Positions 4,058 through 28,173 of a DNA stretch of 32,000 nucleotides are shown in pieces. Under the pieces are notes generated by a model. It did not search any database. It saw only the letters and a list, made by a program, of their open reading frames with translations, and was not told where the DNA came from. The position numbers were made by a program, and so were the translations under genes. This DNA comes from Sinorhizobium meliloti. GTDB lineage: Bacteria > Pseudomonadota > Alphaproteobacteria > Rhizobiales > Rhizobiaceae. The stretch covers positions 1,110,001 to 1,142,000 of the forward strand of contig NZ_JAGIOS010000003.1 of assembly GCF_017876815.1 (NCBI RefSeq). The letters run 5' to 3'. Numbering within the stretch: position 1 is the stretch's first letter; each line of letters begins with the position of its first letter.

Positions 4058-5458
4058 ATGCTGACCAAGTTGAAACTGGCTCTGATCGCTCCCATTGCTG
4101 CAATCGCACTCGTATCCGGCGACATCCTGGCTCCTGGAAACATGATTGTGCGTGAAGTGATCGGAACCGGTCTCGCCTTGGCCGATGACGACGACGATGA
4201 CGGTGGGAGTGGCGGCAACCGCGGATCGGGCGGTTCCGGCCGCTCCGGCTCCTACGGCGCCGGCGCCGGATGGAGTGGCGGCAAGAGCCTGTTTCCATTC
4301 CGAGAGTTCCTGCCACGTCGAAGCATCCCGCGGCGCTCTCGCGCAGCCGCACCCGCTGCGCCGATACGAGCGCCCGATGAGATCGTCGGGCTGGGTTTCA
4401 GTCCGACGGAACTCGGCGAGTTGACAGCCACGGGCTTCGAGGTCCTCGAACGAAACACGATGACGTCATTCAACGCCGAGGTGATCAAGCTTCGCATTCC
4501 CCGCGGGCTGACTCTGGAAGCCGCTCGGCAGCGGGCGCGCGCCGCGGCCCCTCAGGCGGTGATCGACTTCAACCATTATTTCCGGCCGGAGCAGCATCGC
4601 GATGCCCCGTGCGTCACGAGCGACTGCCTGGCACGGAACGTGATCGGCTGGCCCTCGGCTCAAACGGGGCCTAGCAATTGCTCGGCCGGCGTGCGGATCG
4701 GCCTTGTCGATACGGCGATCAATCCCGATCACATCGCATTCGAGGCTCGCAACTTAGAGATCGTCCGTCTCGTCGACGAAGAATTGCCGGAGTCGGGCAG
4801 ACAGCACGGCACCGCTGTCGCGGCTTTGCTTGTCGGCTCAGCCAGTGGCCGTACGCCGGGCCTGATACCGGGTGGCAAGCTCATCGCCGTGGACGCATTT
4901 CATCGGGCGGGACGGCAAGACGACCGATCCGCCGCCTTCGATCTGGCGCGCGCACTCGACCTCCTTGCTGGGCGTCAGGTTCAGGTCATCAATCTCAGCC
5001 TTGCCGGGCCGCCCAATCTCCTGCTTGAACAGGCGGTCAAAAAGACGGGGGAGCGCGGGATCATCATGGTCGCCGCCGCGGGCAATGACGGTCCAAGAGC
5101 CGAGCCCGTCTATCCGGGTGCCTATGAAGAGGTCATTGCCGTCACCGCGACCGACAGGCGCAAACGGCCTTACCGGCGCGCCGGACGCGGAGAGCATATC
5201 GACTTCGCCGCCCCTGGCGTGGCGGTCTGGACAGCAGCCTCGGTCAGCGGCGCGCGTCCGAAGACGGGAACCTCTTTCGCCGCCCCTTTCGTGACCGCGG
5301 CGGTGGCGATGATGAAAGCATCTGAGCCGGAGCTCGCTGCGGAGATGCTCCGCGACAGGCTGACCGGACATGCCGAAGATCTCGGAGATCCGGGAAAGGA
5401 TCCTGTCTTCGGCTGGGGCTTGTTGAACGCGCGAGCGATTTGCAAGGCGAAGTCCTGA
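4058..5458 (+). CDS. Secreted S8-family (subtilisin-like) serine peptidase
   Basis: The catalytic motifs occur in D-H-S order: GLVDTAINPDH, HGTAVAALLVG, AAAGNDG (oxyanion Asn) and GTSFAAPFVTAAVAMM. The N-terminus has a hydrophobic signal-like segment followed by a DDDDDDGGSGGNRGSGGSGRSGSYGAGAG low-complexity tract. Confidence 0.9.
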   Translation: MLTKLKLALIAPIAAIALVSGDILAPGNMIVREVIGTGLALADDDDDDGGSGGNRGSGGSGRSGSYGAGAGWSGGKSLFPFREFLPRRSIPRRSRAAAPAAPIRAPDEIVGLGFSPTELGELTATGFEVLERNTMTSFNAEVIKLRIPRGLTLEAARQRARAAAPQAVIDFNHYFRPEQHRDAPCVTSDCLARNVIGWPSAQTGPSNCSAGVRIGLVDTAINPDHIAFEARNLEIVRLVDEELPESGRQHGTAVAALLVGSASGRTPGLIPGGKLIAVDAFHRAGRQDDRSAAFDLARALDLLAGRQVQVINLSLAGPPNLLLEQAVKKTGERGIIMVAAAGNDGPRAEPVYPGAYEEVIAVTATDRRKRPYRRAGRGEHIDFAAPGVAVWTAASVSGARPKTGTSFAAPFVTAAVAMMKASEPELAAEMLRDRLTGHAEDLGDPGKDPVFGWGLLNARAICKAKS

Positions 5459-24710: not shown

Positions 24711-25657
24711 ATGGCGAGACCTTTTTCGAATGATCTTCGGGAACGCGTTGTCGATGCGGTGACGGGCGAGGGCCTATCGTGCCGGGCAGCGGCCAAGCGC
24801 TTCGGCATCGGCATCAGCACCGCGATCGATTGGGTGCGGCGGTTTCGCGAGACGGGCAGCGCCGCACCCGGCCAGATGGGTGGGCACAAGCCCCGCAAGC
24901 TTTCCGGTCCGCACCGGGCTTGGCTGCTTTGCCGCTGCCGCGAGCGCGACTTCACGCTGCACGGACTTGTCGCCGAGTTGAGCGAGCGCGGCCTGAAGGT
25001 GGATTATCGCGCCGTCTGGACCTTCGTGCACGAAGAGGGGTTGAGTTATAAAAAAAGACGCTGGTCGCCAGCGAACGGGAGCGGCCCGACGTCGCCCGCC
25101 ACCGGGCACGATGGCTGAAGCACTGCCCCGGAATTGATCCCGCCCGCCTCGTTTTCATCGATGAGACCTGGACGAAGACGAACATGGCGCCGCTGCGGGG
25201 CTGGGCGCCTCGCGGCGAACGACTGGTGGGCTACGCCCCCTTCGGCCATTGGAACACCATGACCTTTGTCGCCGCACTCAGGGCCGACCGCGTCAGCGCT
25301 CCCTTTATCCTCGATGGCCCGATCAATGGCGAACGCTTCCGCATCTATGTCCAGCAAGTTCTGGTGCCGGAACTCAAAGCCGGCGACATCGTCATCCTGG
25401 ACAATCTCGGCTCCCATAAGGGTCAGGAGATCCGCGCCGCCATCCGTAAGGCCGGCGCCCGCCTGTTCTTTCTGCCGAAATATTCCCCCGATCTCAATCC
25501 GATCGAAAAGCTCTTCGCCAAAATCAAGCACTGGTTGCGTGAGGCACAGGCCAGATCACGCGATGCAATCCATGACGAACTGCGCCACATTCTCCAAGCC
25601 GTCACCCCACAGGAATGCGCAGTCTACTTCAAAGAGGCGGGATATGAACGGGCTTAA
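24711..25657 (+). CDS. IS630-family DDE transposase, in two frames joined by a -1 shift at an A7G run
   Basis: The first frame has an HTH N-terminus ([24 protein letters not shown]). The -1 frame continues [21 protein letters not shown]...[26 protein letters not shown]...ILDNLGSHK...[13 protein letters not shown]. Confidence 0.85.
25050..25057 (+). other. A-AAA-AAG-type slippery run (AAAAAAAG) at the transposase frame junction
   Basis: A run of seven A followed by G lies exactly where the reading frame changes from frame 0 to frame -1. Confidence 0.5.
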
Positions 25658-25689
25658 ATACATACCGCTCTAGCAGGCTGTTGAAGAAG

Positions 25690-26034
25690 TCAGTCGCGTT
25701 CGCACACGAAACCGGAATCGTCTCCGTTATGGACGTAGATGTGTCCGACAAGGCGTCCAGCGGAGCCGAGAGCTGCCCATCCACGACCACAGACCGGGTC
25801 GCTCTCGTCTTGTCCTTCCCATGAGAACTCTGCACAGGCGGATCCATCGCGTGCGCCATAGCGAACATCGAGAAAGCCCTTGAGCGCGACAAATGCGATT
25901 TCGCCGTCCGCTGTGCCCTGGAATGTCAGATGCGCCTCTTCGACGAGATCGAGGACGTCGTTGTCCCAGTTGTCCATCTCGACGATGCGCCAACGACCGG
26001 CGAAGGCCTTGGCGAAGGGAGAAACTCTCGCCAT
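25690..26034 (-). CDS. Conserved hypothetical 114-aa protein (passenger ORF inside the IS5-family element)
   Basis: Codon usage is coding-like. Its ATG overlaps the transposase stop (TGATG). Its own stop codon abuts the terminal inverted repeat. The motifs are GRWRIVEMDNWDNDVLDLV ... FSWEGQDESDPVCGRGWA. Confidence 0.6.
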   Translation of the reverse strand: MARVSPFAKAFAGRWRIVEMDNWDNDVLDLVEEAHLTFQGTADGEIAFVALKGFLDVRYGARDGSACAEFSWEGQDESDPVCGRGWAALGSAGRLVGHIYVHNGDDSGFVCERD

Positions 26035-27135
26035 CAGCCTGTCTCCGTCATGAGCTTCGGCAGCCGCACCAGATTATAGGCGGCGGCCGCGAAGGTGAAG
26101 GCCCATCCGACGCGGTCGCGCCCGCGGAACTTCGTCTTATCCTGCCCCGCGACGGTTTTGATCCAGCCGAACGCCTCTTCGATGCGCTTGCGGATACGCA
26201 AGCTGGCCTTATAGCCGCAATGTCGCGTCGTGCGCCCATCAATGGCCGAACGGCGACCGTTGATGTTCTGCGTCACGTGGGGTGTCACCTTTATCGATCG
26301 CAAATCTTTGACGGAGTCTTTTGTGTCATATGCTTTGTCGGCACCCAGCGTGATCGCTTGTGGCCGGTCGGAGAAGGGTTCGATCATGGCAAGCGCCGCG
26401 ACACGTTCGGCATATCCGCTGGCCTCTGTAGGCAGGCATCGGCCAGTAGGCCATGGCGGTTCTCCATCAGCCCATGGCCCATAAAGCACAGCTGGCTTCC
26501 TTGCCTTTGCCTTTCTTATAAAGCTTTGCATCGGGGTCGGTCGTTGAAGCATGCGTCTCGTTGGAACGCCTTTCGCCGTGGAAGTCTGATCCCGCATTCC
26601 GACCGCCGCTATCTGATGGTGGTTCGCCATTATCGCCCCTTGGGCCGTCCTTCGGCTTGAAGCTCTTCATCGACGCCCAGGCCTCGACCAGTGTGCCATC
26701 GACAGAGAAATGGTCAGTTGACAGCAGCCGCTTTACCTTGGGCTGGGAAAGGATTGCACCCAGGAACTTCGCAGCGATGTCGCCATCAAGCAACCGGTCG
26801 CGGTTCTTCGAAAACACCGAGTGGTCCCAAGCCGGATCGTCAATGCCGAGGTCAACAAACCAGCGGAAAAGAAGGTCGTATTCCAGCCGCTCCATTAAAA
26901 GCCGTTCAGAACGGATCGAATAGAAGGCTTGCAAAAGCATGGCACGTAGAAGCTTCTCAGGCGCGATCGAAGGCCGTCCGATCGGCGAATAGAGTGCTGC
27001 AAAATCTCGTTCCAGCGAGACGAGTGCATCGTTCACGATCTGACGGATGGCACGTAGAGGATGATCTTTTCGAACACGATCCTCAAGATCGACATAGCTG
27101 AAGAGTTCGCCTGTCCTCACATCGCCGCCGCGCAT
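26034..27135 (-). pseudogene. IS5-family transposase inactivated by two 1-bp deletions
   Basis: The N-terminal part, MRGGDVRTGELFSYVDLEDRVRKDHPLRAIRQIV...HFSVDGTLVEAWASMKSF...DPDAKLYKKGKGKEA, is followed by LCFMGHGLMENRHGLLADACL in a second frame. TEASGYAERVAALAMIE...LGADKAYD...RKRIEEAFGWIK then continues in a third frame. Confidence 0.85.
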
Positions 27136-27210
27136 CCATCAGCTCCAAATCGCAATACAGCGAGTGAATCATGACCAGAGCCCGGGCGCTAGGGCTTTTT
27201 CAACACCCTG

Positions 27211-28173
27211 CTAGACGGCTGGCACCAATCTCATACGATGGCCAGGCGCGATCTCGACGAGTTCGGAGGGCGGGGGCGCGGAAAAGACGTCCGGTGCGGT
27301 GCTGCCGTCAACTGCGAAGCTGCGACCGTCAGGAAGCGGCACATCGGCAAAGTGGTCTTTCGTCCCCGGGTTCAGGGCTGCATCCGGATCGGGAATGGCG
27401 GCGATGAGCCGACGCGTATAGGGATGGGCGGGCCTTTCGAAGATGTCCCGCCAGCCGCCCTCCTCCACGACCTGTCCGAAGAACATCACCAGCACCCGGT
27501 CGCTCATATGCTCCACCACGCTCAGGTCGTGGCTGATCATCAGGTAGCCGAGGCCGAGCTTTTCCTGCAGGTCCAGCAGCAGGTTGATGATCTGTGCGCG
27601 TATCGACACGTCGAGGGCGGATACCGGTTCGTCTAGCACGACGATTTCCGGTTCGAGGATGAGCGCGCGGGCAATGCCGATGCGCTGGCGTTGGCCGCCG
27701 GAGAACTCGTGCGGATAGCGGTTCGCCTGCTCGGGCGTCAGCCCCACATTGGCGAGCATGACCTCGATCCGGTCGGCGATCTCCGATGCCGCCGTGATGC
27801 CGTGCAGCCGCAGCGGCGCAGCCAGCGAGGTGCGTACCGACTGGCGCGGGTTCAGCGAGGCATAGGGGTCCTGGAAAACCATCTGCACCGCCTTGGCGCG
27901 CTGCATGCGTCCGGGCGCCCCCGGCCCGGTGAGCGGCTGACCGCGATAACGGATCGTGCCTTCGGTCGGCTCCTGAAGACCGAGAACCGAGAGCGCCGTC
28001 GTGGACTTGCCGCAACCGGATTCGCCGACGATCGACAGGCATTCGCCCTTGGAGAGCGAGAAGCCGATGCCGTTGACGGCATGCAGCATGCGCCGACCGG
28101 TTCCGAGCAGTCCTCCGCCGGAAACGGAGAAGCGGACATGCAGGTCGTCCACCTCCAGCAGGGGGTTGGTCAT
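27211..28173 (-). CDS. Peptide ABC transporter ATP-binding protein (DppF/OppF-like)
   Basis: Walker A is GESGCGKST, the signature is [15 protein letters not shown] and Walker B is [12 protein letters not shown]. An ATGA overlap couples it to the upstream ATPase gene. Confidence 0.9.

Follow-up and report, generated by a model that had tools for sequence, protein, structure and literature searches.

A defective IS5-family element of Sinorhizobium meliloti with a passenger gene at its 3' end

Layout and boundaries of the element

Analysis of a stretch of Sinorhizobium meliloti DNA of 32,000 nucleotides (contig NZ_JAGIOS010000003.1, positions 1,110,001 to 1,142,000; below, "the window" means this whole stretch) revealed a defective copy of an insertion sequence (IS) of the IS5 family. 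The copy lies on the minus strand at 25674-27210 of the window and is 1537 bp long; comparison with copies elsewhere gave 1539 bp for the intact form. Its terminal inverted repeats (IRs) enclose a transposase pseudogene and an open reading frame (ORF) of 114 amino acids (aa), which is referred to here as the passenger. The following features were assigned, in window coordinates:

25670-25673, no strand: target-site duplication CTAG, ORF-side copy (CTAG/CTAA is found on both sides of copies elsewhere)
25674-25689, minus strand: 3' terminal IR, IRR in the transposase sense, CTTCTTCAACAGCCTG (repeat search and copy alignments)
25690-26034, minus strand: passenger gene type A, 114 aa, predicted small all-beta protein (ORF list, homologues, substitution ratios and AlphaFold2)
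26043-26046, minus strand: GGAG, a Shine-Dalgarno-like motif 8 bases before the passenger ATG, within the last transposase codons (sequence reading; putative function)
26034-27135, minus strand: transposase pseudogene, 367 aa when intact (DUF772 and DDE_Tnp_1, alignments)
26429-26430, minus strand: second 1-bp deletion (alignment with intact copies)
26492-26494, minus strand: first 1-bp deletion (alignment with intact copies)
27195-27210, minus strand: 5' terminal IR, IRL in the transposase sense, CAGGGTGTTGAAAAAG (repeat search and copy alignments)
27211-27214, no strand: second copy of the CTAG target duplication, whose CTA supplies the TAG stop of an ABC ATPase gene

A repeat search returned two arms of 21 nt (25669-25689 and 27195-27215) that are 90% complementary (19/21). 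Comparison with copies at other sites resolved these arms into a 16-bp terminal IR plus the 4-bp CTAG duplication. The 19/21 match exceeds the IR proper because the palindromic CTAG is counted in. The two 16-bp ends, CAGGCTGTTGAAGAAG at 25674-25689 and the reverse complement CAGGGTGTTGAAAAAG at 27195-27210, agree at 14 of 16 positions. An earlier reading of the window from its letters and ORF list (the sequence-only reading) had described two genes enclosed by IRs with 15 of 17 matching positions. Both genes and both repeats were found, with slightly corrected coordinates, and the count of 17 had taken in one duplicated base. The ORF list also bore out the proposed extent of the 114-aa ORF (25690-26034), the overlap of its ATG with the transposase stop and the position of its own stop against the IR. 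The A of the transposase TGA stop (26036-26034) is also the first base of the passenger ATG, giving the junction TGATG, and the passenger TGA stop (25690-25692) directly abuts the IR.

In megablast searches, the window region was 100% identical to S. meliloti SM11 plasmid NC_017327.1 and to RU11/001. Among plasmids, 46 records covered at least 80% of the query, and most alignments stopped at window positions 25670 and 27214. The segment 25670-27214 matched many S. meliloti plasmids at 99% identity, and the three that were examined carry it at different sites. Three annotated intact copies (M270 accessoryB, ml28 pSymB and Ensifer canadensis pT173b) were aligned; they share the same first and last bases and are flanked on both sides by CTAG or CTAA. 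The 1539-bp unit with a 4-bp CTAR duplication was also present in a pSymA insertion (five strains), at a second M270 site and in a prophage copy. Identical end bases were found in copies from S. meliloti, Ensifer, Rhizobium, Bradyrhizobium, Mesorhizobium and metagenomes, with TTCAACAGCCTG as the right end of the metagenome relatives too. Four contigs of 1.52-1.54 kb (L042, L061, L091 and L099) consist of the whole element, ORF included.

The end points shared by the copies elsewhere place the 114-aa ORF within the mobile unit. In most of 80 genome loci found via the ORF, the transposase ends a few bases from the ORF start, usually with the TGATG overlap and sometimes with ATGA. Each independent insertion of a type A or type B element (both described below) has the ORF between its boundaries. 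The ORF lies within the IRs in every full-length copy of the same architecture, as expected of cargo rather than of a neighbouring gene, which is how the sequence-only reading had interpreted it. A junction of another kind was seen in locus L185 (~1340-1372), where a right end ...TTCAACAGCCTG, a CTAG and a left end CAGG... follow one another; this is either two copies head to tail or an abutted-end junction.

Pfam analysis of the window transposase fragments detected DUF772 (2.6e-23) and DDE_Tnp_1 (1.4e-8). An intact 367-aa homologue scored 266 bits on the NCBIfam model NF033581 (cutoff, 140). The IS1182 family was rejected as an assignment, with 189 bits against a model cutoff of 270. Judged by its ends and its predicted transposase, the element is a member of the IS5 family (IS5 group) of Rhizobiales with a two-gene layout. 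It resembles IS5 of Escherichia coli and other members of the IS5 group in its DUF772 plus DDE_Tnp_1 transposase passing NF033581, its short IRs, its 4-bp CTAG/CTAA duplication and a length of 1.3-1.5 kb; it differs from them in a second conserved gene on the same strand that fills the 3' end. IS5 duplicates a 4-bp YTAR-type site. The intact 367-aa DDE transposase would thus recognize the 16-bp IRs and insert the element at CTAR with a 4-bp duplication, with the 114-aa passenger as a second gene that fills the whole 3' end up to the IR.

The Prokaryotic Genome Annotation Pipeline (PGAP) labels the two genes "IS5 family transposase" and "hypothetical protein", and no named ISfinder relative is given. 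A literature search found no paper on the element or its ORF and no IS name; ISfinder itself was outside this search and may list the element. The name ISRm19 was considered and rejected, as it denotes a different, REP (repetitive extragenic palindromic)-associated IS.

Transposase decay and the modular 3' end

The window copy differs from the intact 1539-bp copies by exactly two 1-bp deletions. The first, at IS position 718 (window ~26493), changes GCCAAGCT to GCCAGCT; the second, at IS position 783 (window ~26429/30), changes CTAACAG to CTACAG. The transposase pseudogene is consequently spread over three frames, 27135-26467, a middle segment and 26630-26034. The middle segment, LCFMGHGLMENRHGLLADACL, is readable in the third frame. 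Alignment with intact copies placed both deletions within the intervals predicted from the letters (26486-26500 and 26421-26437) and agreed with that prediction on the frame of the middle segment. On inspection, neither deletion lies in a homopolymer or slippery motif, and both are ordinary mutations.

The deletion at position 718, together with three linked substitutions, is common to the pSymA insertion of strains RCAM1750, USDA1021, Rm41 and RMO17 (L117-L120), which has different flanks. An already frameshifted copy therefore occupies two loci, and its spread reflects either mobilization in trans or gene conversion. Among ten copies compared, the deletion at position 783 was found only in the window sequence, which two plasmid records match at 100%. 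The window copy is thus predicted to encode no active transposase and is classed as a pseudogene-bearing member of the IS5 family; it would move only with transposase supplied in trans by an intact copy.

Metagenome contigs were searched with the transposase, which made the ascertainment independent of the ORF. This search gave 80 loci with transposases 75-96% identical. Three architectures were found downstream of the transposase stop, all ending in the TTCAACAGCCTG repeat followed by a CTAG, CTAA or (once) TTAG flank. The counts below are a manual tally of the ~73 of 80 loci with enough flank to decide:

Type A: ~1528-1539 bp, ORF ~80% identical to the window ORF, junction TGATG, ~19 loci
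Type B: ~1503-1521 bp, ORF of 113-115 aa that is a 37-46% identical paralogue, junction ATGA, ~27 loci
Type C: ~1273-1311 bp, no ORF, no junction, ~27 loci

The type B ORF belongs to the same family as the window ORF, with 80-100 bits on the hidden Markov model (HMM) of the family and a BLASTP E value of 3e-18. It reads through the 16-bp terminal repeat (encoding ...TSSTAC), and its stop is the TAG/TAA of the CTAR duplication (L124, L137, L159, L163 and others). Because this stop lies in the target duplication, the insertion site supplies it. The three types are interspersed on the transposase tree and inside clusters whose transposases are at least 88% identical. In the cluster of the S. meliloti transposase (at least 88%), three elements are of type A and three of type B, and the closest relative (96%) is of type B. 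The 3' slot of this IS lineage is modular, holding type A, type B or a deletion of either.

In type C elements, the spacer matches the first 55-95 nt and the last 20-50 nt of a type A or B module; these elements are internal deletions of A or B. One deletion form was found at three to four different sites, each with its own target duplication, which indicates that ORF-less elements have transposed. More distant relatives (transposase 47-67% identical, same end type and target) end ~100-150 bp after the transposase stop. In this 3' region, no member of the passenger family was detectable in Skermanella, Azospirillum, Novosphingobium, Paracoccus, Pandoraea or Variovorax.

These short forms bear on the idea that the ORF is a neighboring gene, or a chance frame in GC-rich DNA, and that the true end of the IS lies near 26034. 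The sequence-only reading had named homologous copies that end right after the transposase as the finding that would overturn its view of the ORF as cargo. Short related variants do exist and end ~100-130 bp past the transposase stop, as a neighbor or chance frame would predict. These variants are internal deletions of ORF-bearing forms, which points to an ORF that is dispensable in cis and not to a neighboring gene. The repeat search also showed no IR near 26034, and all full-length copies elsewhere extend across the ORF to one common end base. A ratio of nonsynonymous to synonymous substitution rates (dN/dS) of 0.1 and a confident fold prediction, both presented below, are further points against this explanation, which is already refuted by the data.

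The passenger gene, its family and its expression

A search of 5.8 billion proteins returned 967 homologous clusters at 90% identity. The best 120 of these 967 clusters are mostly 114 aa long and 74-98% identical, and all are unnamed. An exhaustive profile search gave 2234 clusters at 50% identity (E<=1e-3). The passenger had no Pfam or NCBIfam match at E<=0.1 or higher, the families of the accessory proteins IstB (IS21), TnpB (IS66) and TnpB (IS605/IS200) included, and the PADLOC defence models gave zero matches for seven members of the passenger family. Distant homologues are 110-130 aa long and stand alone.

The surroundings of some distant relatives were recorded. Three of them (L105, L106 and L116; 40-50% identical) have no adjoining IS5 transposase. 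Among these, one has an XRE-type helix-turn-helix (HTH) gene 20 nt downstream, one is overlapped by a PRiA4_ORF3 gene and one adjoins a DUF4926 gene; these neighbors are uninformative on function. Equally uninformative are three longer proteins (P0205, P0266 and P0212) in which the passenger domain is C-terminal and fused to DUF6398, DUF7713 or a zinc ribbon.

Substitution rates were determined by the Nei-Gojobori method for 39 elements with both genes intact (736 usable pairs). The dN/dS value was 0.105 for the passenger ORF versus 0.112 for the transposase, at a median dS of 0.84 versus 0.77. Judged by this substitution pattern, the passenger is a real protein-coding gene under purifying selection. 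The 80 genome loci found via the ORF were ascertained through it and kept by best score, so that counts of intact ORFs beside broken transposases are biased and were not used. The argument for selection rests instead on dN/dS and on the loci ascertained by the transposase.

An intact ORF inside a dead IS had been taken in the sequence-only reading as a sign of selection on the passenger. Such selection holds, by the dN/dS of ~0.1 in the family and by the survivors without a transposase described below, but it is not inferable from the window copy. The window copy is 99.8% identical to some other copies, and the argument from it is weak because this divergence is only ~0.2% and the transposase is a 3.2-fold larger target. 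For this length ratio, simple arithmetic gives a chance of ~58% that both of two hits land in the transposase.

The ORF stands without a transposase on nine IMG/VR contigs and at several genome loci. At these loci, the part similar to the IS comprises the ORF and the 12-80 nt before its ATG; it reaches the stop or runs slightly past it and sometimes includes the IR. These loci are 5'-truncated remnants of the IS. One group is situated between P2-type tail genes (GPW_gp25, Baseplate_J and Tail_P2_I) and a long ORF beside a phage-tail-repeat ORF. A 76% identical homologue (P0081) lies 60 nt downstream of a large terminase gene (TerL). Between transposase-less copies with the same flanks, dN/dS was 0.08-0.28 at a dS of 0.2-0.65; the common flanks indicate that these copies diverged after the loss of the transposase. 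On these estimates, lone ORFs persist in prophage-like regions under purifying selection. At one such locus (L020), the retained ORF is next to a short-chain dehydrogenase gene (4437-5375); the Tail_P2_I gene is on one side of this pair and the long ORFs are on the other, beyond the retained ORF. The dehydrogenase gene and the ORF together look like a small cargo island.

The GGAG upstream of the ORF was kept in the transposase-less copies inspected, and a TATAAT is located ~45 nt upstream of the passenger ORF; this TATAAT is not counted as a promoter, as a consensus scan returned none. The passenger is probably transcribed with the transposase message; its translation probably relies on its own GGAG and, where the copy is intact, on re-initiation at TGATG as well. 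Translational coupling to the transposase, as the sequence-only reading had proposed, agrees with the conserved overlap; the ORF has its own GGAG, and coupling cannot operate in the window copy, where the transposase reading frame stops at 26467, ~430 nt upstream of the ORF. Any translation of the passenger there would depend on the GGAG.

The same junction was considered with respect to a programmed -1 frameshift or readthrough that would fuse the passenger to the transposase as a C-terminal domain, as in the two-ORF groups of IS5, IS3 and IS1. The ORFs of types A and B are both in the -1 frame relative to the transposase, as such a fusion would need. No slippery heptamer was seen in ACGGAGACAGGCTGATG, and the NCBIfam model recognizes the 367-aa protein by itself as a complete IS5 transposase. 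In the two-ORF frameshift transposases (IS427/IS1031-type IS5 groups, IS3 and IS1), the upstream ORF is without the catalytic domain, whereas here it encodes a complete DDE transposase. The passenger ORF has its own ATG and GGAG and stands alone in the transposase-less contexts and among distant homologues. We regard a fusion product as highly improbable.

Role of the passenger and relation to known systems

The window contains a defective IS5-family copy in which the passenger is a real gene and very probably serves as cargo rather than as transposition machinery, with a putative action in trans. The passenger protein would act on a cellular or mobile-element target and would benefit the carrier element or the host. 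We infer a target other than the element's own transposase because near-identical transposases carry very different alleles and because the gene is kept without a transposase.

Several observations weigh against this interpretation. The Rm41 pSYMA copy (L119) has a 2-bp insertion, GA, at IS position 1262 within the passenger ORF, so that dead copies can have a damaged ORF. Two metagenome elements (L142 and L188) combine an intact transposase with a truncated ORF. In principle, ORF-less derivatives may be supplied with the protein in trans when ORF-bearing copies share their cell, and the ORF would then be dispensable in cis only. A consensus scan of the element found no internal promoter. Isolated phage genomes in GenBank contained no passenger homologue; the "phage" contexts come from contigs predicted to be viral or from prophage-like regions, and "prophage-like region" is the safe wording. 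With respect to function, the passenger has no model in Pfam, NCBIfam, PHROG or PADLOC. A profile search of the Protein Data Bank (PDB) returned noise only (calcineurin B at E ~2). The best matches of the predicted structure in a Foldseek search against the PDB, NanoLuc and CRABP2, were weak (E ~2e-3; template modeling [TM] score, 0.4-0.5; root mean square deviation, 6-12 A; identity, 10-14%).

The fold itself was predicted with high confidence. AlphaFold2 with a diverse alignment gave a predicted local distance difference test (pLDDT) score of 95.3 and a predicted TM score of 0.87 for a fold with a short helix at the N terminus and eight beta strands after it. A run with close homologues only reached a pLDDT of 52 and was discarded in favor of the diverse-homologue run. 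A Foldseek search against BFVD gave nothing significant for the passenger. G13, W15 and W23 are invariant in the passenger family and E69, R84, W86 and H102 nearly so, and weak matches to Lipocalin_4 and lipocalin-like Pfam models were obtained for single family members only. The weak Foldseek matches, together with the invariant G13 and W15, suggest a calycin-like barrel, a model from which ligand or activity is not inferable. The passenger is like the calycin beta-barrels (CRABP2 and NanoLuc) in being small, in carrying a GxW motif on its first strand and in its predicted fold, a short N-terminal helix and then an antiparallel sheet of eight strands. It is unlike them in that it lacks sequence-level membership and its structural matches are weak. 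The passenger product is predicted to be a small all-beta protein of 12 kDa and is probably cytoplasmic.

The most serious alternative to a cargo gene is a transposition accessory factor or regulator, such as a copy-number inhibitor or a target-choice helper; lone copies would then repress incoming related ISs. Both types keep the tight overlap with the transposase stop (TGATG in A, ATGA in B), and the ORF uses every base up to the terminal repeat, in type B even through the repeat. The two genes are also alike in dS and dN/dS, and their pairwise nucleotide distances within type A are correlated (r=0.84). All this would fit a functional partnership. However, transposases that are 90-96% identical carry passengers that are only 37-46% identical, which argues against a specific partnership. 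ORF-less deletion derivatives are present at several new sites, relatives with the same IR and target do without the ORF, and distant family members occur in non-IS contexts. No DNA-binding or ATPase domain was detected in the passenger. An accessory role is therefore considered unlikely, and cargo remains the preferred interpretation of the passenger.

ISs with passenger genes already form a class, the transporter ISs (tIS; ISfinder/TnCentral), and the IS5-family lineage described here is a variant of it. As in a tIS, a transposase and an extra gene lie within one IR pair and move as a unit. One source limits passenger-carrying ISs (tIS) to the IS1595 and IS66 families, whereas the window element belongs to the IS5 family. 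Its cargo is one tiny gene of an uncharacterized family and not a resistance gene, a regulator or a transporter, and in this lineage the cargo comprises two divergent alleles plus deletion forms. The lone ORFs resemble phage morons in their position between tail genes or after the terminase gene and in their conservation under purifying selection. They differ from morons in keeping 12-80 nt of the 3' end of the transposase, sometimes with the IR, and in matching no isolated phage genome. Because the transposase 3' end is retained, they are IS remnants that were kept, unlike classical morons, which bring a promoter and terminator of their own.

ISs are usually defined as carrying transposition genes only. 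A widespread IS5 lineage of soil and root-nodule bacteria with a cargo slot, two divergent alleles and repeated losses is an exception to this definition. Its cargo comes from a large protein family that has neither a name nor a model in Pfam, NCBIfam, PHROGs or PADLOC, and the retention of the gene alone inside prophage-like structural modules points to a trans-acting function. For annotation, a "hypothetical protein" that follows such an IS5 transposase is part of the element. Going further, the type A and type B passengers might be alleles of a large unnamed beta-protein family engaged in element-element or element-host conflict (anti-defence, exclusion or IS immunity), with IS5-type elements shuffling and spreading the alleles and prophages repeatedly domesticating them from IS remnants. 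We put this forward as a tentative possibility and consider it rather doubtful.

The surroundings of the IS5 copy in the window hold two further features. An IS630-family element (24711-25669) lies directly against the IS5 copy. It comprises an HTH domain protein (24711-25118) and a DDE_3 domain protein (25184-25657), and its transposase appears to be split or frameshifted. On the other side, an ABC ATPase gene of the oligopeptide/dipeptide type (ABC_tran plus oligo_HPY) occupies 27211-28173 on the minus strand, and its TAG stop comes from the CTAG duplication. The IS5 copy sits in the CTAG at the border between the IS630-family sequence and the ABC gene end, and the insertion is located exactly at the stop codon of the ABC ATPase.

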